Shown here: positions 11,198 to 55,776 of the stretch, in pieces | Position numbering within the stretch: the first letter of the stretch is position 1 | How the letters are laid out: each line of letters starts with the position of its first letter | DNA from: Candidatus Desulfaltia bathyphila | GTDB taxonomy: Bacteria > Desulfobacterota > Desulfobacteria > Desulfobacterales > ETH-SRB1 | Length of the DNA stretch: 64,000 nt | Assembly: GCA_014381545.1 (NCBI GenBank) | Contig: JACNLL010000056.1 | Coordinates: forward strand, 26,846-90,845 | Direction: 5' to 3' | The notes under the pieces: model-generated | The model's input: only the letters and a program-made list of their open reading frames with translations | Database searches by the model: none | What the model was told of the DNA's origin: nothing | Translations under genes and position numbers: made by a program

Positions 11198-11258
11198 TCA
11201 CGCGGCGCAAGCGCCCCTGCCGCGACGGGCGCGAGCACGGCGGGTGCGCTGCTCGTGA
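11198..11258. repeat. GC-rich 60-bp imperfect palindrome, copy A
   Basis: tcacgcggcgcaagcgcccctgccgcgacgggcgcgagcacggcgggtgcgctgctcgtga. Near-identical copy at 28221-28279. Confidence 0.85.
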
Positions 11259-13919: not shown

Positions 13920-14041
13920 AATATGTTATCTGCCTTTCCCTTTTAGGCAACACAATACCTGATATTGTAATTTAGGACACAAGGGGATTATTGATTTTAA
14001 TTCCTAAATTCCTGAATCCCTTAATTCCTAAATCCATCACT

Positions 14042-16398: not shown

Positions 16399-17175
16399 AT
16401 GTATCAAATAGCGGGTTACATAGGCAGAAAAACCTTAAAATCTGTCAACCATATTCTGGATCTATTTGCCTTTACTTACAGAATACTCGATCTGATCCTT
16501 CAAAGACCAAAAGAAGGTAGAGTTCTTGTCAGAAGAGTTGTTCTGGAACAGATATATTTTACGGCTGTGCAAGCCCTTCCCCTGCTTATTCCGATCGCTC
16601 TTATTGTTGGGAGCATGCTTATTATACAATTTGCCAAGATCTCTAATCAATACGACATAGGCACAACAATGGTGCTGTTAATTGTGAGAGAATTAGGCCC
16701 CGGTATTACAGCTCTTTTGGTGATATTGAGATCAGCTACTTCAGTAACTATAGAGATCGGCTACATGAAGATTTTTCATGAAATAGATACGATTGAAATG
16801 GCAGGCATTAATCCCATACGAACAATTTGTCTGCCAAGATTGATAGGGATCACATCCGCCATACTTTGTCTTTTTATCGTTTTTGACCTGGTGTCCATTA
16901 TCGGAGGTTATGGAGTAGTATGGGTCTTTACACATATTTATTTAGGCGACTTTCTTGGACAGATTGCAAAAGCCGTAACTCCGACAGATATTATTGTAGG
17001 AATTGTAAAAGCCCTGTGTTTTGGAATTATTATTACCGTAACATGTCTCTATCACGGATTCAGCATAGAAAAAAATATTACAGGCCTGCCGGTAGCAACA
17101 TCAAAAGCAGCCATTGAGTGTTTTTTTTACTGTCTGGTGATAAATGTCATTATATCAATAATATTTTACATATAA
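16399..17175 (+). CDS. mlaE: MlaE-family ABC transporter permease
   Basis: 258 aa with multiple TM helices. The N-terminal cytoplasmic segment and EQIYFTAVQALPLLIPIALIVGSMLI are typical of MlaE/TTG2B permeases. Confidence 0.75.
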   Translation: MYQIAGYIGRKTLKSVNHILDLFAFTYRILDLILQRPKEGRVLVRRVVLEQIYFTAVQALPLLIPIALIVGSMLIIQFAKISNQYDIGTTMVLLIVRELGPGITALLVILRSATSVTIEIGYMKIFHEIDTIEMAGINPIRTICLPRLIGITSAILCLFIVFDLVSIIGGYGVVWVFTHIYLGDFLGQIAKAVTPTDIIVGIVKALCFGIIITVTCLYHGFSIEKNITGLPVATSKAAIECFFYCLVINVIISIIFYI

Positions 17176-17178
17176 AGT

Positions 17179-17260
17179 ATTGAGGAATTGCGAATTGAGG
17201 GATTGAGGGATTAAAATTAGTAGAATACCTTTAAATCCTAAATTCCCCAATTCCTAAATA
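17179..17260. repeat. Word-built hairpin (GAGGAAT/GAGGGAT versus ATTCC/ATCC)
   Basis: attgaggaattgcgaattgagggattgagggattaaa faces tttaaatcctaaattccccaattcctaaata, with a 15-nt loop. Confidence 0.6.
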
Positions 17261-17312
17261 TCTTTCTGTCTTGGTGGCTGAACTATTATGGTTTTGTTTG
17301 TTAAGGATTTAA

Positions 17313-25658: not shown

Positions 25659-25693
25659 TACAAACTCCTTTTGCCCAATTTAACATTTTAGCT

Positions 25694-25947
25694 TTTTGAA
25701 AATATGGCTGCTCCAGGTATAATTAAATTTTATACTGAAAAAACTCGTAGATAACGGCTCGTAATAAAAGAACCTGCCCGGGCTATTAATAAAGGTTTTT
25801 GTTTTAAGAAAATGTTTCATCTTTAAATCAAATCACTTATGGTTCTTTTATAACGATCCCTAATCCACTCAAACAGTTTCCAATATAAAATTTAATCATA
25901 CCTGAAGCTTGTTTAAAGTCGATTTGTTTCAAAAGGCTAAATTAATA
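25694..25947. mobile_element. About 255-bp palindromic MITE-like element, copy 1
   Basis: Reverse complement of 48878-49133 aligns end to end at roughly 90% identity by eye. Terminal inverted repeats ggtataattaaattttatactg and caatataaaatttaatcatacc. The inner arms are also complementary. No ORF. Confidence 0.6.
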
Positions 25948-25955
25948 CTACCCAA

Positions 25956-26653: not shown

Positions 26654-26686
26654 CTTGATGGCCTCGTAAAAAGTTTTGTGCAAAAT

Positions 26687-26804
26687 TGAAGAACCCTGTA
26701 GCAAGCTACAGGGAATCTTCGACCGTAAGGAAGTTGGCCATTTTTAGATTCGCTCGCTAACCCCGCAGCAAGCTACGGGGAATGCGCTCGCTATTGCGGT
26801 TCAA
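26687..26804. repeat. About 118-bp double-hairpin repeat, intergenic copy
   Basis: gaagaaccctgtagcaagctacagggaatcttcgaccgtaaggaagtt...ccccgcagcaagctacggggaatgcgctcgctattgcggttcaa. A co-linear copy lies at 54701-54818 inside ftsX. Confidence 0.8.
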
Positions 26805-26887
26805 ATAATAATTTAATTTTAAACCGCATATTTATCCAAATGCAAGAACTTTTAACACCCGAAAGTCATGGTCTGGATTAAAGCAAG

Positions 26888-26965
26888 TTTCCTTACGGTC
26901 GAATCCCGCTCGAAAGCCGAACTGCGGCTTGCCGCAGTGAGTTTGAATTTGGCTCCTTTATTATA
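26888..26965. repeat. Inverted partial copy of the CCTTACGGTCGAA family plus terminal AAAGGAGCCAAATTCAA inverted repeat
   Basis: ccttacggtcgaatcccgctcgaaagccgaactgcggcttgccgcag is related to the reverse complement of 26692-26735 and to 35055-35110. ttgaatttggctccttt (26943-26959) is the exact complement of 26408-26424. Confidence 0.6.
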
Positions 26966-28137: not shown

Positions 28138-28215
28138 TGGCGTCCCCAACCGGATTTGAACCGGTGCTGCCGGCGTGAAAGGCCGGTGTCCTTGGCCAGG
28201 CTAGACGATGGGGAC
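28138..28215 (-). tRNA. tRNA-Glu (anticodon UUC), CCA encoded
   Basis: Reverse complement GTCCCCATCGTCTAGCCTGGCCAAGGACACCGGCCTTTCACGCCGGCAGCACCGGTTCAAATCCGGTTGGGGACGCCA folds as a cloverleaf. Acceptor GTCCCCA/TGGGGAC, anticodon stem CCGGC/GCCGG, T-arm ACCGG/CCGGT. Confidence 0.9.
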
Positions 28216-28220
28216 GCATA

Positions 28221-28279
28221 TCACGCTGCGCAAGCGCCCCTGCCGCGACGAGCGCGAGCACGGCGGGTGCGCTACGAGA
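28221..28279. repeat. GC-rich imperfect palindrome, copy B, filling the tRNA-Lys/tRNA-Glu spacer
   Basis: tcacgctgcgcaagcgcccctgccgcgacgagcgcgagcacggcgggtgcgctacgaga. It differs from 11198-11258 at only a few positions. Confidence 0.85.
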
Positions 28280-28355
28280 TGGTGGGCCGTGCGCGGCTCG
28301 AACGCGCGACTCTCTGCTTAAAAGGCAGATACTCTACCAGCTGAGTTAACGGCCC
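28280..28355 (-). tRNA. tRNA-Lys (anticodon UUU), CCA encoded
   Basis: Reverse complement GGGCCGTTAACTCAGCTGGTAGAGTATCTGCCTTTTAAGCAGAGAGTCGCGCGTTCGAGCCGCGCACGGCCCACCA. Acceptor GGGCCGT/ACGGCCC, anticodon stem TCTGC/GCAGA, T-arm GCGCG/CGCGC. Confidence 0.92.
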
Positions 28356-35054: not shown

Positions 35055-35110
35055 GTAAATCCCGTCTCGCGGGGCTGCAGTCCCGCTTTCGGGCGGGATT
35101 CGATCATAAG
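35055..35110. repeat. Inverted copy of the CCTTAYGRTCGAATCCCGC repeat family
   Basis: The reverse complement ccttatgatcgaatcccgcccgaaagcgggactgcagccccgcgagacggg parallels 26888-26935. Confidence 0.6.
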
Positions 35111-35123
35111 GAAAGCGGATAAT

Positions 35124-39921: not shown

Positions 39922-40111
39922 TTCGCTTTGCTTAATTGCGAATTGAGGAATTCAGGAATTCGCTTCGCTTAATTGCGAATTGAGGAATTCAGGAATTTAG
40001 GAATTAAAGGTATTCTGTTGATTTCAATCCCTCAATCCCTCAATCCCTTAATCCCTTAATCCCTCAATTCCTCAATTCCTCAATTCCTTAATTCCTCAAT
40101 TCCTCAATCCC
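39922..40111. repeat. Largest word-built hairpin: duplicated G-arm plus 11 tandem octamers T[CT]AAT[CT]CC
   Basis: Direct duplication ttcgctt(t/c)gcttaattgcgaattgaggaattcaggaa (39922-39958 and 39959-39995). G-arm units gaattgag/gaattcag/gaatttag/gaattaaa. The C-arm 40024-40111 was counted as 11 octamers. It ends at the kinase stop codon. Confidence 0.85.
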
Positions 40112-42345
40112 TACACAGGCAGCTCTATTACAAATTTGGCTCCCTGAGGCTGGTTATCATGCACCTGTATCATGCCGTTATGATCGGCAACAATCGTGCT
40201 GACAATTGTCAGGCCTAATCCCATGCCCGTCTTTTTTGTTGAAAAATAGGGCTCAAAAAGATGTGTCTTATCTTCATCAGAAATGCCTGGGCCATTATCG
40301 GCAACCTCTATCCGAACAATGTGTAAGATAGGATCACTGGTTAATGTAATTGAAATTTTGCCATTTGTCTTAATCGAAGCAATGGCATTGTCAACAAGAT
40401 TAATCATAGCCTGCTTAATCTGCCTGCGATCAATATTTAAAGGCGGAATATCCTCTGTCATGCTGATTTTGAAATCTATATCTTGATGCCCTTCTTTGTA
40501 TAGCGCCACGGTTTCTTCAATAATGGGCGGCAGATCGCAAAGTTCGGGATTTGCCGCTGGAAATCTTGCAAACGCGGAAAACTCATTTACCAGGTTCCGA
40601 ATCAAATCCACATGATCAATTATCATTTGAATACATTCCTCAAAAACCGGTTCATTTATCTGTTTTGAATATCTTCTTTTTAGACGCTGAGCCGAAAGAG
40701 AGACCGGGGTTAAAGGGTTTTTGACTTCATGGGCAATCCTGCGCGCGACTTCACGCCATGCCGCAATGCGCTGGGCCTTTTCCAGTTCCGTAAGGTCATC
40801 AAAGACCATTACTATGCCCATATGGTTTCCCGCGTCGTCTTTAAGCGCATTAACATGCATCATAAAACTACGCTGCCTTCCTTGTATTGTTAATCTAAGC
40901 GGAAGGGTAACATCATCCTCCCGGGAGCTGGTCAGATTATCAATTATTTCTTCTGCGAGATTCAGGTGTTGCCCTTTAAGCAGATTTTTATAGTTTTTAT
41001 TCAGCATATCCTTTGGGATAAGATTGAGCATCTTTTCAGCGGACTTGTTTATGGTTGACACAAGCCCGCTTGGGTCAAGAGTTATTACGCCGGCAGAAAC
41101 ATTCTTCAATACTATTTCCATATGCTGCCGTCTTTTTTCTATCTCAACATTTTGTTTGCGAAGCATACCTGCGGAAAGCTCTAATTGTTCCCTGCTAATA
41201 CGTAAATCTTTTGTCATCTTATTAAATGAATCAACAAGAGTGCCGATTTCAGCATCAGCCACAGGGCCGATGCTGAATCCCAAATCTCCTTCCGCAACCC
41301 TTCGTGTCCCCTCGGCAAGCTCCATGATCGGTATTGTAATAGATTTTGCCAGGTAAAACCCAAACCATATCGCGCAAAAAACAACAAGCAGTGCCACGAT
41401 TGAAAGGGTTATATAATAGGTTGTCTGGATCGGTTTCTTAAGAAGTATTATCTGTTGATATTCCTCAAAACCTCTTGATATGGATGCCATATTTTCAGAA
41501 AGATCAGGAGGAATCAATACCGACAATACAACAAAGCCTTTGGCATCTGTGTAATTTGTGCCAAAAGGAATAGTTCCAATCGTTCTTATTAGCTCCCCTT
41601 CCGGAATTTTTTCAAAAACCGACCTTACCCCTTTTGGCTCTATATCCTTTTGAAAATCATCAGTAGAAACAACGCGAAAAGGCTTATCTTCCAGTTCCAT
41701 GGCAAGAGCAAATGTAAGACGGTTTGCATTCACGCTATAAATTTCAACAGCATCAATATTAAATGCCCGCTGAACAACCTGAACATAGTGGGAAAGGGCT
41801 TTCCTTTTTTTTTCAGCCAGAAGTTTTTTGGTGTTTATCTGGTAGGCAATTCTTTCCAGATAAAACCGGTTATTTTCTTCTGCACGATTATACAAACGCC
41901 TTCCTACAAGCAATGAGTTTTCAAGAGCCTGCTCTACAGGAACATTAAACCAAAATTCAATGCTGGTTGTAATAAAGCTGATTGAAAAGAAAAAAAGCAC
42001 AATCGTAGGCAAAAGAGTAAGCGCAATAAAGGCGACCACAAGTCTCGTGCGAAGTTTTGCCCCCATCACCTTGCGCTTTCTATCATAGAGCAACTTTACC
42101 AGATTTCTAAACACAAGAAATATCAACAAGATAAGCAGCAGTAAATTGATGTTGATTAATATGAACATCAATATTGTGTTGGAAATCGGAATCTCTGCCC
42201 CAAAATGTATTACCTTGTGCTCAGCAAAGGTCATGAGGGCAATGGCAAAGATAACTATGACAATCAGAATGCCTTCACGTTTCCGCCTTTTGCGTTCCTC
42301 TTCTAAGACATGAGATTTTGGACTTTTGAATATATTATTGCTCAT
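40111..42345 (-). CDS. ntrY: NtrY-like sensor histidine kinase (TM-HAMP-PAS-HisKA-HATPase)
   Basis: N-terminal TM cluster. HAMP (ITIPIMELAEGTRRVAEGDL). PAS region. H-box AHEVKNPLTPVSLSAQRL. N/G boxes (NLVDNAI, DNGPGI, GMGLGL). Confidence 0.8.
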   Translation of the reverse strand: MSNNIFKSPKSHVLEEERKRRKREGILIVIVIFAIALMTFAEHKVIHFGAEIPISNTILMFILININLLLLILLIFLVFRNLVKLLYDRKRKVMGAKLRTRLVVAFIALTLLPTIVLFFFSISFITTSIEFWFNVPVEQALENSLLVGRRLYNRAEENNRFYLERIAYQINTKKLLAEKKRKALSHYVQVVQRAFNIDAVEIYSVNANRLTFALAMELEDKPFRVVSTDDFQKDIEPKGVRSVFEKIPEGELIRTIGTIPFGTNYTDAKGFVVLSVLIPPDLSENMASISRGFEEYQQIILLKKPIQTTYYITLSIVALLVVFCAIWFGFYLAKSITIPIMELAEGTRRVAEGDLGFSIGPVADAEIGTLVDSFNKMTKDLRISREQLELSAGMLRKQNVEIEKRRQHMEIVLKNVSAGVITLDPSGLVSTINKSAEKMLNLIPKDMLNKNYKNLLKGQHLNLAEEIIDNLTSSREDDVTLPLRLTIQGRQRSFMMHVNALKDDAGNHMGIVMVFDDLTELEKAQRIAAWREVARRIAHEVKNPLTPVSLSAQRLKRRYSKQINEPVFEECIQMIIDHVDLIRNLVNEFSAFARFPAANPELCDLPPIIEETVALYKEGHQDIDFKISMTEDIPPLNIDRRQIKQAMINLVDNAIASIKTNGKISITLTSDPILHIVRIEVADNGPGISDEDKTHLFEPYFSTKKTGMGLGLTIVSTIVADHNGMIQVHDNQPQGAKFVIELPV

Positions 42346-48877: not shown

Positions 48878-49133
48878 GTATCAATTTAGCCCATTGAAAC
48901 AAATCAATTTCAAACGAGCTTCAGGTATGATTAAATTTTATATTGGAAACTGTTTGAGTAGATTATGGATCGTTATGAAAGAACCATAAGCAATTTGATT
49001 TAAGAATGAAACATTTTCTTGAAACAAAAACCTTTATTAATAGCTCTGGCAGGTTCTTTCGTTACGAGCCGTTATCTACGAGTTTTTCCAGTATAAAATT
49101 TAATTATAGCTAAAGCGGTAGTATTTTCAAAAA
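48878..49133. mobile_element. About 255-bp palindromic MITE-like element, copy 2 (inverted relative to copy 1)
   Basis: See 25694-25947. Lies between the ychF stop and the purF-like start. Confidence 0.6.
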
Positions 49134-49203
49134 ATTAAAATATTACGAATTTTTTACTTAAAGCATAGATAACACTTTTGTGTCAATTTTTCTGTATTGC
49201 ACA

Positions 49204-52590: not shown

Positions 52591-54012
52591 TCAACTTTTA
52601 AGCCACTCAAGCGGGTTAACCGGTTTTCCGTGATGGCGAAGCTCAAAATAGAGTTTCGGGCCGATCATTGAACCTGTATCGCCAACCGTGGCAATAACTT
52701 CACCCGCCTCAACATAATCACCCTTTGCCTTAAAGAGCTCTTCAGCATGTGCATAGACCGTGCAGAAATGATCTCCATGATCTATGATAATCATGTTCCC
52801 ATAACCTTTAAACCATCTGGAGTAAAGTATCTGTCCATCATATACCGAATATACGGGTTCGCCTCTGTCGGCTTTAATATCAATACCTGTTTTGAAATTT
52901 ACTGTTTTGCTTTGGCTGTTTGTATGTCGGCCAAAAAAACATATTATTTTACCCTTTACAGGCATTTTAAGCAACCCCTTAAAGGAGCTAAAAGCTCCAT
53001 GTGATATGTTTTTAACCTTGTTAGGCATCTGGCTCAAGGATTGGCCCAAGGATTGAATTATCCGATCCAGAGCGGCTGCCGTCTGTTTTAATGCTTCAAT
53101 GGCAGCTAATCCAAGCCTTTTTTTGCTTTGTATATCAACAAGAAGTTTCGAGCGTTTTTCATTTTCATTAGACATTATGTCAATTCGTTTGTTTAAGTCT
53201 GTTTCAAGCAAAATCTTTTTTGTTTTTTGAGTATTCATTTTGTCTAACAGCCGTTGTAACCTATCCTTGTTTTTTACAAGTTTTCCCCAGATCTTTTCGT
53301 CATGAGCAAGAATATGTTCCATGGTGATTTTACGTTGAAAAAAATCGTTGATCGATTCAGCAGAGGCAAGAATGTTCATTTTACCAATCAGGTTTAGTTT
53401 ATAGACGGCGATCAAGCGATTGGATGCATAATCTTCGCTTGTTTTAATCCTTTTTCGGAGGTCATTGAATGCATGAGTTGCTTCCTGAATGTCTGTTTCA
53501 AGTGAGGCGAGTTCGGACCTCAAGACTGAAACACGCTTTCTGGCAATGTTTAGAGCAAGGTCTGCCTTATTTAAACTGTCAATAATAGCAACCTCCTTTT
53601 CGGCAAAGGTCTGAACTTCGGCTCCTTGTTTTTCCAGTTTGCGGCTGATATCTTTTGTCTTTTGTCTGGCTGTTTTGATTTTAGCTTCAACATCGCTCAG
53701 GTTTTCGACTGCTTTGTCGTAAACAATCCGAATATAACTCTTCCGATATCTAACATAACCGATCTGACCATCATGCCGGATTTTAAGCCACTTATTGCGG
53801 CGCGCTAAAATTGTAACCTTTGCCCCTTTTTTGAGTATCTTTATTGGAGGCTTATTGGTTCCCGGTTCCGGTCGTACATTAAGCCTTGACGCGGTTACAA
53901 TCCCTGTTTCATTTGATTGAAAACCGACAGCCACAGCAGAATGTAAAAGCACAACAATACCGGCTGCAATAAAAATTATAAAACCAAGCGATATAAAATG
54001 AGAATTTTTCAC
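52591..54012 (-). CDS. envC: EnvC-like murein hydrolase activator (SH3b, coiled coil, degenerate LytM/M23 domain)
   Basis: SH3b-like VTASRLNVRPEPG...KWLKIRHDGQIGYV. Long coiled coil. In the LytM domain the metal ligands are replaced (KTGIDI for HxGxD, PKLYFELR for PHLHFE). Start is uncertain; a GTG at 54012 is proposed. Confidence 0.7.
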   Translation of the reverse strand: MKNSHFISLGFIIFIAAGIVVLLHSAVAVGFQSNETGIVTASRLNVRPEPGTNKPPIKILKKGAKVTILARRNKWLKIRHDGQIGYVRYRKSYIRIVYDKAVENLSDVEAKIKTARQKTKDISRKLEKQGAEVQTFAEKEVAIIDSLNKADLALNIARKRVSVLRSELASLETDIQEATHAFNDLRKRIKTSEDYASNRLIAVYKLNLIGKMNILASAESINDFFQRKITMEHILAHDEKIWGKLVKNKDRLQRLLDKMNTQKTKKILLETDLNKRIDIMSNENEKRSKLLVDIQSKKRLGLAAIEALKQTAAALDRIIQSLGQSLSQMPNKVKNISHGAFSSFKGLLKMPVKGKIICFFGRHTNSQSKTVNFKTGIDIKADRGEPVYSVYDGQILYSRWFKGYGNMIIIDHGDHFCTVYAHAEELFKAKGDYVEAGEVIATVGDTGSMIGPKLYFELRHHGKPVNPLEWLKS

Positions 54013-54017
54013 GCAGC

Positions 54018-55010
54018 CTATTCTTTTAAAAATTGTCTCAGAGAAATAAAACACCCTAACCATCCAACAAGCATGCTGCACAATATTATTGTGCTGGACT
54101 GCCTGAGCGAAAGAAACCTGACGTGTAACAAATCGGAAGATAGGCCCTGTTCAACATTGGTTGATATATATATATAAACGGCAAATAATGCAGCAAGCCC
54201 GATGATTCCTCCAAGTGCACTCTGGATAATGGCTTCAATGTAAAAAGGGGTCTTGATAAATCGGTCGGTAGCTCCAACCAGACGCATTATTTCAATCTCT
54301 TCACGCCTTGAATAGATTACAAGTCTGATAGTGTTGGCTACGATAAAGACAGCGGCTATGAAGAAAATACCGCTCATAGCATACCCTGTTAATCTGAACA
54401 GATCAAAGAGCTTAACAAATCGTCCGATCCATCTACGGCCATATTCAACATCATCTATTTCAGGAAGTGATTCAATCTGAACCGCCAGATTTTCAATCCT
54501 TTCACTGTTTGGAAACTGCCCTGTAAGACGGATTTCAAAGGCATCGGGAAGTGGGTTCTCCTTGAGTCCATCAAGAAGGGAAGATTGCCGTTTCATCTGC
54601 TCTCTAAGTCGCTTCATAGCTTCCTCTTTTGATATGAACCTGGCCTCGGCGACCCCATAGAGCCCCTGAATTCTGTTTTTTATATCAACAAGGTTTGGTT
54701 GAAGCTCCCCGCTGCTTGCGGCAGGGAATCTTCGACCGTAAGGAAGTTTGCTATTTTTGGATTCGCTTGCTAACCCCGCCGCAAGCAGCGGGGAATGCGC
54801 TCGCTTTTGCGGTTCAACTATATCCGGTTTGAGGTATGCTATTATTCTTATTCCCTTTTTCCAGGAACTCATATAGTCGTTTGCATTGAGAAAAAAAAGA
54901 ACAATAGTACTGACTATAAGTATTGACAGAAATATTGTAATAATTGTGACTGCATTCAGAAATTTGTTGGTTCGGATATCCTGAATGGCCCTTTTAAAAA
55001 AGAGAATCAT
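54018..55010 (-). CDS. ftsX: Cell-division ABC transporter permease FtsX, carrying an in-frame repeat insertion
   Basis: FtsX topology and motifs (periplasmic loop ...RFISKEEAMKRL..., 3 C-terminal TMs). Follows ftsE. Confidence 0.85.
   Translation of the reverse strand: MILFFKRAIQDIRTNKFLNAVTIITIFLSILIVSTIVLFFLNANDYMSSWKKGIRIIAYLKPDIVEPQKRAHSPLLAAGLASESKNSKLPYGRRFPAASSGELQPNLVDIKNRIQGLYGVAEARFISKEEAMKRLREQMKRQSSLLDGLKENPLPDAFEIRLTGQFPNSERIENLAVQIESLPEIDDVEYGRRWIGRFVKLFDLFRLTGYAMSGIFFIAAVFIVANTIRLVIYSRREEIEIMRLVGATDRFIKTPFYIEAIIQSALGGIIGLAALFAVYIYISTNVEQGLSSDLLHVRFLSLRQSSTIILCSMLVGWLGCFISLRQFLKE
54701..54818. repeat. About 118-bp double-hairpin repeat inside the ftsX coding sequence
   Basis: Co-linear with 26687-26804 (shared cagggaatcttcgaccgtaaggaagtt and ggggaatgcgctcgc...tgcggttcaa). 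Translated in frame as PQKRAHSPLLAAGLASESKNSKLPYGRRFPAASSGE. Confidence 0.8.
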
Positions 55011-55098: not shown

Positions 55099-55776
55099 TC
55101 ATTTAATTTGACGTCCCTCTTTAAGATGGATTGCCCTGCAACCTGTTTTGCGTATCAATTCCTGGTCGTGGGTTGCAACAAGGAGTGTGCCTCCTCGCGC
55201 GTGGAACCCTTTAAGAAGATCAAAAACAGTGCCGGCCGATTCTGGGTCAAGGCTGCCGGTTGGTTCATCGGCTAAGATTATCTTAGGCATCCCTACAACC
55301 GCTCTGGCCACTGCGATTCTTTGCTGTTCTCCGCCTGACAGGCTTTGAGGCAGGGCATTAAACCTCTTTTCCATTCCTACCATTCTCAGCACGCTGTTTA
55401 CTTTTTTCTGGACAAACCGCCTTTTTTTACCCATTGCCTCAAGCACTAAAGCAACATTATCAAATACGGTTTTCGTGGGTATCAGTTTGTAATCCTGGAA
55501 TATTATCCCTAACTTTCGCCTTAAAAGCGGAATCCGTTTGCGCGAAATTCTGGAAAGATTCATTCCGTCGATTAATATCTGCCCCTCTGATACAGGTTCT
55601 CCAAGATAAAGGAGCTTCAGCAGAGTGGATTTGCCTGCCCCGCTGGGACCGGTGATAAAAAGGAATTCATTTTTGGATACATCGAGGTTTATATTGATTA
55701 AAGCCTTTTTTGAGCCGTAATTCTTGTGGACATGGAACATTCGAATTATTGCACTTTTGTCGTTTTTGTCGATCAT
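55099..55776 (-). CDS. ftsE: Cell-division ATP-binding protein FtsE
   Basis: Intact Walker A GPSGAGKST, signature LSGGEQQR, Walker B ILADEPTG. Confidence 0.9.
   Translation of the reverse strand: MIDKNDKSAIIRMFHVHKNYGSKKALININLDVSKNEFLFITGPSGAGKSTLLKLLYLGEPVSEGQILIDGMNLSRISRKRIPLLRRKLGIIFQDYKLIPTKTVFDNVALVLEAMGKKRRFVQKKVNSVLRMVGMEKRFNALPQSLSGGEQQRIAVARAVVGMPKIILADEPTGSLDPESAGTVFDLLKGFHARGGTLLVATHDQELIRKTGCRAIHLKEGRQIK

Follow-up and report, generated by a model that had tools for sequence, protein, structure and literature searches.

We examined a stretch of 64,000 nucleotides from contig JACNLL010000056.1 of Candidatus Desulfaltia bathyphila (hereafter the window, within which all positions are given), in which the cell division gene ftsX carries, in the part encoding its periplasmic domain, a two-hairpin repeat that also lies in an intergenic region of the same stretch. 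An initial annotation of this DNA had described the repeat as an in-frame, stop-free insertion of roughly 37 aa into the loop of FtsX that contacts EnvC, in an essential gene that tolerates or exploits it. The genes of the locus are:

54018 to 55010, minus strand: ftsX, an intact, insert-bearing open reading frame (ORF) of 330 aa (from the ORF list; homologues carry PF18075 FtsX_ECD and PF02687 FtsX)
55099 to 55776, minus strand: ftsE, encoding an ABC ATPase, upstream in the same operon (ORF; orthologues carry PF00005)
52591 to 54081, minus strand: a gene for an SH3 and M23 peptidase protein, downstream, the EnvC-type partner (ORF; orthologues carry PF08239 and PF01551)

The order ftsE-ftsX-M23 peptidase is the same in the window and in L110, L111 and L113 (L-numbers denote loci fetched via a 20-mer from the repeat, described below, and via related searches). 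A protein identical to the window's FtsX has three NCBI accessions, its database name being 'Cell division protein FtsX, Candidatus Desulfaltia bathyphila', and phmmer aligned it with the solved FtsX proteins 8hd0, 8ymc and 8i6o (E about 1e-24 to 1e-26) in two stretches, one on either side of the insert. As called, with its start at the GTG at 54081, the M23 ORF shares 64 nt with the end of ftsX (54018 to 54081); the called genes overlap by 37 nt in L110 and are free of overlap in L111 and L113, and the true M23 start in the window may lie farther downstream than this GTG.

The 119-nt block at 54699 to 54817 is the same repeat as that at 26686 to 26804 (54701 to 54818 and 26687 to 26804 as first annotated): formal alignment joins the two without gaps over 122 nt at 85% identity, and a 25-mer common to both occurs twice against 0.00 times expected from shuffles. 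G+C over the ftsX element is 57%, against a local background of ~40%. Both hairpins of the ftsX copy, H1 and H2, fold (z-scores -4.5 and -5.6), and as H1 is here the reverse complement of H2, the lowest-energy fold is a single long stem of 20 bp. Over the whole window, Rfam 15 at the gathering score detected two tRNAs only, and nothing over the element; a permissive Rfam search of the element returned a single chance-level match (RSV_PBS, 21.9 bits against a gathering score of 47; E = 0.045), and no terminator-like site was seen inside it. The parts of the element are as follows:

54699 to 54812, minus strand: net inserted DNA, 114 nt or 38 codons, encoding PQKRAHSPLLAAGLASESKNSKLPYGRRFPAASSGELQ (from comparison of filled and empty sites in L110 and L111 and from protein alignment)
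54813 to 54817, minus strand: TTGAA on the ftsX sense strand (TTCAA on the plus strand), a target motif abutting the element and resembling a transposon-adjacent motif (TAM), already present in the L111 empty site and kept in nearly all family members
54699 to 54703, minus strand: sense-strand TTCAA (plus-strand TTGAA) at the terminus of the element and borne by it, TEM-like, conserved in the family and flanked by random sequence
54707 to 54726: hairpin H1 (CCCCGCTGCTTGCGGCAGGG), its loop flipped in the ftsX copy relative to the family consensus (fold, and covariation over 50 copies)
54727 to 54773: central core AATCTTCGACCGTAAGGAAGTTTGCTATTTTTGGATTCGCTTGCTAA (family alignment; in part the search bait)
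54774 to 54793: hairpin H2 (CCCCGCCGCAAGCAGCGGGG) (fold; 88% paired on the plus strand and 97% on the ftsX-sense strand with G.T allowed)
54794 to 54812: conserved tail AATGCGCTCGCTTTTGCGG, 19 nt separating H2 from TTGAA (columns more than 90% conserved, outside the search bait)
26686 to 26804, plus strand: the intergenic copy, 85% identical, with a TAG stop in the frame that the ftsX copy keeps open

The element in ftsX translates without a stop as EPQKRAHSPLLAAGLASESKNSKLPYGRRFPAASSGELQ, a peptide that includes LPYGR and RFPAASSGELQPNLVDIK. Among the best 120 homologues nearly all full-length proteins are of 291-297 aa, a length of 330 aa being found otherwise only in database protein P0001; in alignments with 13 and then 87 homologues all other FtsX proteins show a clean gap of 38 residues between DIVE(66) and xNLVDIK, and five solved FtsX proteins have no residues at this position. 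The FtsX alignment thus confirms the insertion, one residue longer than first estimated. Compared as DNA, the window and L109 are longer by 114 nt at this point than L110 and L111, whose sites are empty. The L111 empty site reads GATATAGTTGAACCAAACC (in short form GTTGAACCAAAC), and the filled site reads GATATAGTTGAA, then CCGCAAAAG...GAGCTTCAA, then CCAAACC, which is to say GTTGAA, followed by the element beginning CCGCAAAAG, followed by CCAAAC. The element is therefore mobile DNA placed 3' of TTGAA on the ftsX sense strand, with no target duplication and no direct repeat at the junction beyond a 4-nt microhomology (AACC), along which the insertion point can slide by up to 4 nt.

Insert-bearing FtsX proteins form one 90% cluster only, made up of the window's protein and a sister lineage, with five distinct sequences of 330 aa in which the frame is open throughout and whose insert peptides are identical in alignment. 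Three ENA contigs with 400-850x coverage carry P0001 and P0258; five distinct sequences, three NCBI accessions and three contigs at such coverage rule out an assembly artefact. An exhaustive search with the insert peptide (a 39-residue query) against 1.84 billion representative proteins returned 91 clusters, mostly ORFs of 50-120 aa called over intergenic copies; this search under-counts copies in genes, as insert-free orthologues stand for their clusters. A word-indexed peptide search matched only short ORFs called over intergenic copies. Judged from these sequences, the insert peptide is a translation of the repeat and no normal segment of the protein, being found in FtsX only where the repeat is.

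A dispersed family of two-hairpin elements

The two copies in the window belong to a dispersed family that is frequent in sulfate-reducing Desulfobacterales. An exact 20-mer from the core, used as bait against a genome collection, matched at least 108 stretches, with 33 assemblies among the matches listed; nearly all the hosts listed are Desulfobacterales or 'Deltaproteobacteria' metagenome-assembled genomes (MAGs), one Ca. Desulfaltia sp. contributing 16 loci and another MAG 14, and the few matches in other phyla may be due to mis-binning. Over the loci fetched from these listed matches nhmmer gave 151 hits, 77 of them full-length. They share the block [A/T]TTGAAG-NN-H1-GAATCTTCGACCGTAAGGAAGTTKGCCATTTTTAGATTCGCTCGCTAA-H2-GAATGCGCTCGCTWTTGCGGTTCAA, with sharp borders and unrelated, random flanks. 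The invariance of the core is partly by construction, since the bait was taken from it; in the 3' tail and the stretch preceding H2, from which no bait was drawn, conservation still exceeds 90%. The TTGAA...TTCAA ends are conserved in nearly all members, the outermost base in ~82%, and flank position -1 is A or T.

Covariation supports the local hairpins. Over 50 copies H1 is 94% paired, and two of its pairs exchange (UA in 24 copies and CG in 19; CG in 30 and UA in 15); both hairpins are backed by exchanges on both sides, and slid controls all drop to 34-50% paired. Long-range pairing of H1 with H2, which the ftsX copy can form, was considered as the conserved structure and rejected, as the local hairpins fit better (91.5% of cells paired against 81%); paired over long range, 43 of 48 copies have mismatches at the loop positions. 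Most copies have their two hairpins in direct and not in inverted orientation, the ftsX copy being an exception, and flipped hairpin loops are present in intergenic copies also. Those hairpin cells that are not Watson-Crick are mostly C.A on the plus strand, that is G.T on the ftsX-sense strand, where pairing reaches 96%; the strand that gives G.T pairs is the sense strand of every host gene. This asymmetry is only a hint of which strand folds.

Three size forms share common ends: a 52-nt form with a single hairpin, the 119-nt standard form, and a form of ~236 nt with an unrelated, multi-hairpin middle. Some copies keep the CCCC/GGGG base of H1 or H2 and carry a further small GC-rich hairpin (e.g. 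GTCCGCCTGAGGCGGAC) in place of its top or as an extension of it (L004 935 to 1077; L106 3818 to 3946; L038 3388 to 3515; L029 5430 to 5477; L061 497 to 729), which nested insertion, or an exchange of modules within the loops, could explain.

Plasmids of Ca. Manganitrophus (Nitrospirota) carry a related element with 77% identity across 85% of its length and an exact match in its first ~40 nt; it is found at L117 3001 to 3104 (CP114557.1), with a TPR gene on one side and a TMEM165/GDT1 gene on the other, and also in CP114554.1 and CP114562.1. This suggests that the family, or its 5' module alone, crosses phyla. No copies of the repeat were found in phage records and viral contigs. The family appears to be undescribed, having no Rfam entry and no description in the literature searched.

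A search of metagenomes for orthologues of the intergenic copy in the window gave two loci, L115 and L116, which lack the element in the corresponding intergenic region and have diverged too far for its rate of change to be measured. Eighty nt from this copy sits what looks like a second, related small element (26880 to 26945, minus strand, with another occurrence at 35074 to 35114), which shares a core TTCGACCGTAAGGAA and a hairpin CTGCGGCAAGCCGCAG with the family and has different ends. It too is missing from the orthologous region of L115 and L116, and a pattern made from 26888 to 26940 matched nothing in the fetched loci.

Recurrent in-frame copies in other genes

The ftsX insertion is one of several into genes. 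A full-length copy was taken to be within a gene when the stop-free stretch reached at least 40 codons on both sides of it. Ten of the 77 copies are of this kind. Nine of them, with the two ftsX alleles counted in, share one orientation and one frame; the tenth lies in a low-complexity ORF which is probably no gene. All nine in-gene copies encode a peptide of the form EPQKRA...LPYGRRFP...LQ (ending GELQ), with Cys-Cys in most translated copies and Ser-Ser in the ftsX copy. Six hosts other than ftsX have a Pfam match, each to a different domain:

L106: radical SAM / DUF2344 protein
L072: asparagine synthase
L057: SRP54-type GTPase (FlhF-like)
L038: DUF4912 protein
L053: FecR protein
L095: CN hydrolase

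The seventh host, in L052, has no Pfam match. Insertion sites in the host proteins are mostly linkers or termini; the CN hydrolase has 41 residues at the insertion where its solved homologue PDB 3p8k has 3.

About 88% of copies are intergenic and 12%, or about one in eight, are in genes. Of the 77 copies, 52 have a net length divisible by three. The EPQKRA frame is open in 34 of the 77 and a frame on the opposite strand in 29, the latter used by no convincing gene. This bias in frame may arise because the opposite-strand peptide, rich in Cys, Trp and hydrophobic residues, is poorly tolerated. Alternatively, it could follow from insertion on a fixed strand relative to replication, and hence relative to most genes; IS200/IS605 elements do insert on a fixed strand relative to replication.

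Partial copies also form the N- or C-termini of called ORFs. In L027 (342 to 1133, minus strand) a partial copy is the C-terminus (…ESESKNG) of an ORF of 263 aa, and in L055 (6325 to 6618, minus strand) another is the N-terminus (MRQRPVAFEPQKRAHSPL…) of a small membrane ORF. The repeat family explains odd extensions of gene ends in current annotation and dozens of spurious 'hypothetical proteins' of 50-90 aa, many such database entries being mere translations of intergenic copies.

Position in FtsX and history of the allele

By phmmer, residues 5-63 of the window's FtsX correspond to E. coli FtsX 60-118, and residues 112-329 to E. coli 129-347 (8hd0), which places the insertion after residue 66, in the loop between strand beta1 and helix alpha1 of the Porter subdomain. 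The two features of FtsX that bear on partner binding are:

54831 to 54851, minus strand: beta1 of the Porter subdomain, residues 54-60 (IRIIAYL), corresponding to E. coli 109-115 and including Thr112 and Tyr114 (phmmer and model secondary structure)
54549 to 54629, minus strand: X-lobe equivalent, residues ~128-154, intact and ~25 residues downstream of the insert (offset from the E. coli alignment)

In the crystal structure of E. coli FtsX with EnvC the interface is dominated by the X-lobe, residues 145-171, with further contacts from Thr112, Tyr114, Val173 and Val175 on the Porter sheet and a peripheral salt bridge of Lys117 (PMC7668044). Tyr114 aligns with Tyr59 and Lys117 with Pro62, and the insert starts 4-7 residues past these. 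The AlphaFold model of the protein has a mean pLDDT of 56, and less than 30 over insert residues 66-103. Although weak, it agrees with the known FtsX topology in secondary structure, giving in order TM1, beta1 (54-60), the insert (66-103), alpha1 (105-115), beta2, two X-lobe helices (128-146), beta3, alpha2, beta4 and TM2-4. Because it is too weak for distances to the EnvC site, the insert site was mapped by sequence alignment with E. coli. On that alignment the insert adjoins the EnvC interface outside the X-lobe, so that the earlier placement in the loop that contacts EnvC is near the mark but inaccurate; the X-lobe, the main EnvC-binding element, is untouched. A steric effect on partner binding is possible. 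The insert is rich in Ser, Ala and Pro and net basic, and in the model it is probably a disordered loop. In other respects the locus matches the FtsEX-EnvC system, a type VII ABC transporter, in gene order, in its FtsX_ECD and permease domains, in the beta-alpha-beta motifs of the Porter subdomain and in the X-lobe, and it differs in the 38 extra residues of the beta1-alpha1 loop, seen in none of about 120 homologues and five solved FtsX proteins.

When the two insert-bearing lineages are compared, the rest of ftsX has a dN/dS of 0.34 at a dS of 0.175, similar to insert-free pairs; ftsX with the insert remains under purifying selection. That the insert is translated is the parsimonious reading of the sequence, and we infer that its peptide is made and harmless. 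The description of the gene as essential found no support for this organism, and in E. coli the binding of EnvC by FtsEX is dispensable for growth in low-osmolarity media (PMC7668044).

The window and L109 agree at 113/114 positions of the insert, whereas the rest of ftsX is 91.8% identical and ~9 differences would be expected at the gene average. L110, without the insert, is 97.2% identical to the window; L111, also without it, differs from L109 at 2 positions in the first ~236 non-insert nt (~350 alignment columns, ~99% identity) and then at ~8% (to 993), a mosaic that indicates recombination inside ftsX among co-occurring Desulfaltia populations. Identity along the wider region around ftsX is mosaic as well. 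The two ftsX copies of the element have derived features in common (flipped H1 and CGCTTGCTAA), with 99.2% identity between them against 94.1% for the closest other copy among 76; as they share such features and are mutual nearest relatives, a single origin of the insert in both lineages is likely. The allele may have been transferred by recombination, or the insertion may be older and have been followed by scarless losses.

Could selection on FtsX account for this conservation? The insert might have been co-opted, the extra loop beside the EnvC face, or an RNA hairpin in the ftsEX-M23 transcript, tuning activation of the M23 partner and being kept or spread by selection. The near-identity of the insert across lineages whose ftsX differs by 8%, the purifying selection on the gene, the closeness of the site to the residues aligned with EnvC-contacting Tyr114 and Lys117, and the Ser-Ser of this copy in place of the usual Cys-Cys, which may matter in the periplasm, would all be in keeping with such a role. 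However, the nearest relative of each insert-bearing lineage lacks the insert (L110 at 97%; L111 at ~99% in the 5' part), peptides of the same type are present in unrelated proteins of the cytoplasm and periplasm, the model gives a disordered segment, and flipped hairpin loops are found in intergenic copies too. Furthermore, three orthologous pairs of elements were found, two of them away from ftsX, and in every one the flanks are less well conserved than the element, so that the high conservation of the element cannot be credited to selection on FtsX. We therefore consider co-option improbable, and the suggestion of the initial annotation that the gene exploits its insert is not borne out.

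Independent, site-specific insertion at the same TTGAA in the two lineages is similarly unlikely. The target seems to need only (T)TGAA, and the flanks follow their own relatives (the window with L110, and L109 with L111), as separate events would have it; but the shared derived variant argues for one event, the same site, orientation and variant would have had to be hit upon twice, and, with a mosaic ftsX showing recombination, it is simpler to suppose that the allele was transferred or that the insertion is old and has been lost without scars.

Ends, mobilisation and relation to known elements

We favour the interpretation, to which we would give a probability of about 80%, that the ftsX insert is a tolerated, translated, selfish insertion of the kind known from Rickettsia palindromic elements (RPEs). 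A non-autonomous mobile element of about 114-119 nt, built of two imperfect, GC-rich hairpins around a conserved core and bounded by TTGAA...TTCAA, would have landed 3' of TTGAA in ftsX, the GAA of which is a Glu codon. The gene stays open because the element is 38 codons long and this variant is stop-free in that frame, and FtsX would thereby gain a loop of 38 residues between beta1 and alpha1 of the periplasmic Porter subdomain, tolerated and not needed. RPEs are short palindromic repeats found in frame in unrelated protein-coding genes, each family giving a conserved peptide and leaving its host gene open, and in-frame palindromic insertions are known from RPEs, intragenic ERIC elements and others (PMC10969869). 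The elements described here resemble RPEs in being about 100-150 bp long, palindromic, dispersed and repeatedly in frame in unrelated genes with a conserved peptide (here in nine of 77 copies, in one frame). They differ in their hosts, which for RPEs are obligate intracellular alpha-proteobacteria and here are uncultured Desulfobacterales from environmental metagenomes, together with Ca. Manganitrophus plasmids. They differ too in being ~88% intergenic, in their two short GC-rich hairpins, their TTGAA/TTCAA ends and their defined target motif; the likeness meant here is one of behaviour.

As to how the element moves, we suggest, more tentatively and at a little under even odds, mobilisation in trans by a single-strand, hairpin-recognising HUH (Y1) transposase, as for the PATEs derived from IS200/IS605 elements. 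TTGAA would then be the transposon-adjacent motif and TTCAA the transposon-encoded end, with no target duplication and with scarless excision. The ends have a HUH-like anatomy, H1 and H2 lying 3 and 19 nt from the terminal pentanucleotides and the terminal inverted repeat being just 5 nt. Set against the published properties of the 'peel-and-paste' IS200/IS605 elements and their protein-less PATE derivatives (PMC10055086), the family shares hairpins near both ends, the lack of a long terminal inverted repeat, insertion 3' of a conserved TTNAN-type pentanucleotide, the lack of a target duplication, and clean presence or absence of the kind that scarless excision would give. It differs in that a TnpA with matching ends was not found in the loci scanned; the motifs for guide and cleavage site are both invariant in the family. 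Judged by their anatomy, the ends would fit IS200/IS605-type (PATE-like) mobilisation best, REPINs and DDE-type MITEs fitting less well.

IS200/IS605 elements are indeed present in Desulfaltia genomes. Screening 1008 ORFs for HUH and Tyr motifs gave a sole Y1 tnpA, at L066 116 to 550 (minus strand; Ca. Desulfaltia sp. JAUSPN010000005), an IS200-type gene of 144 aa with an HVH motif; it was rejected as the mobiliser, since its flanking hairpins, of the type CCTTGCCC-TCA-GGGCAAGG, differ from those of the family, and it is not an obvious candidate. Between the split halves of elements in L027, L084 and L055 there are ordinary genes only and no transposase; a regex scan of the loci turned up five solo hairpins that lie outside elements, and no gene of interest is flanked by any of them.

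Mobilisation of another kind, whether as a classical MITE (with a DDE transposase, terminal inverted repeats and target-site duplication) or as a REPIN moved by a RAYT, seems to us a poor candidate. The TTGAA/TTCAA ends are indeed a 5-bp inverted repeat, but the repeat stops there (the criterion for a MITE being at least 10 bp), and the ftsX junction has no duplication. The family recalls REPs and REPINs in its GC-rich imperfect palindromes, which in those elements are often doublets with a spacer; its 52-nt single-hairpin forms are like REP singlets, and the inverted hairpins of the ftsX copy can make one long stem as in REPINs. REPINs, however, are by definition inverted REPs and almost exclusively extragenic (PMC3116915), whereas here the hairpins are mostly direct, pair locally better than over long range, and are in genes in one copy of eight; and no RAYT was seen in the loci searched.

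Several observations weigh against the interpretation that we favour. The 715 kb of loci scanned yielded no cognate transposase. The junction is defined by one filled/empty pair only, and since TTGAA and TTCAA are symmetrical the active strand is inferred; the strand asymmetry of the hairpin mismatches rests on two or three amplified subfamily variants. With a mean pLDDT of 56, the description of the insert as disordered is weakly supported, and an insert identity of 113/114 against 91.8% for ftsX is unexplained by simple neutral vertical inheritance. A bolder proposal, and an unlikely one, would be that a 'gene-compatible' derivative of a single-strand transposon (a multiple of three in length, stop-free in one frame and encoding a hydrophilic, disordered peptide) systematically seeds loops and linkers in Desulfobacterales proteins, and that the ftsX allele beside the EnvC-type face is held at 99% and passed between lineages because it alters FtsEX activation of the M23 partner. 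By far the least probable explanation is that the insert is absent from the mature product, through decay of a pseudogene or removal from the RNA: the ftsX segment is strongly structured as RNA (-54.5 kcal/mol, z = -5.6), but 330 codons are open in five distinct sequences, dN/dS is low, the Rfam searches matched nothing above chance, and a group I or group II intron would be far longer than 114 nt.

The window holds other repeats. A 268-nt AT-rich sequence occurs as an inverted pair (25681 to 25948 and 48878 to 49145; 89% identity), each copy with internal inverted repeats of 32 nt, and looks like another MITE-type family. A very GC-rich repeat of 53 nt is present at 11198 to 11250 and 28221 to 28273 (96% identical), the second copy lying exactly between tRNA-Glu (28138 to 28215) and tRNA-Lys (28280 to 28355). 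A tandem array of 8-nt units (AATCCCTC / AATTCCTC) occupies 40010 to 40130, and stretches related to this array, as well as 37-nt repeats, lie at 13991 to 14039, 17174 to 17273 and 39922 to 39995, some of them inverted.

The family described here belongs to a different phylum and lifestyle from those of the RPEs and has better-defined ends. It extends a Rickettsia-type phenomenon, in which selfish palindromic DNA survives in genes by being translated, to abundant free-living sediment bacteria, and its ends and target motif are defined well enough for the mobilising enzyme to be sought. Its in-frame copies are natural insertion experiments, marking permissive sites in several proteins, one of them beside the surface of FtsX that binds the hydrolase activator.

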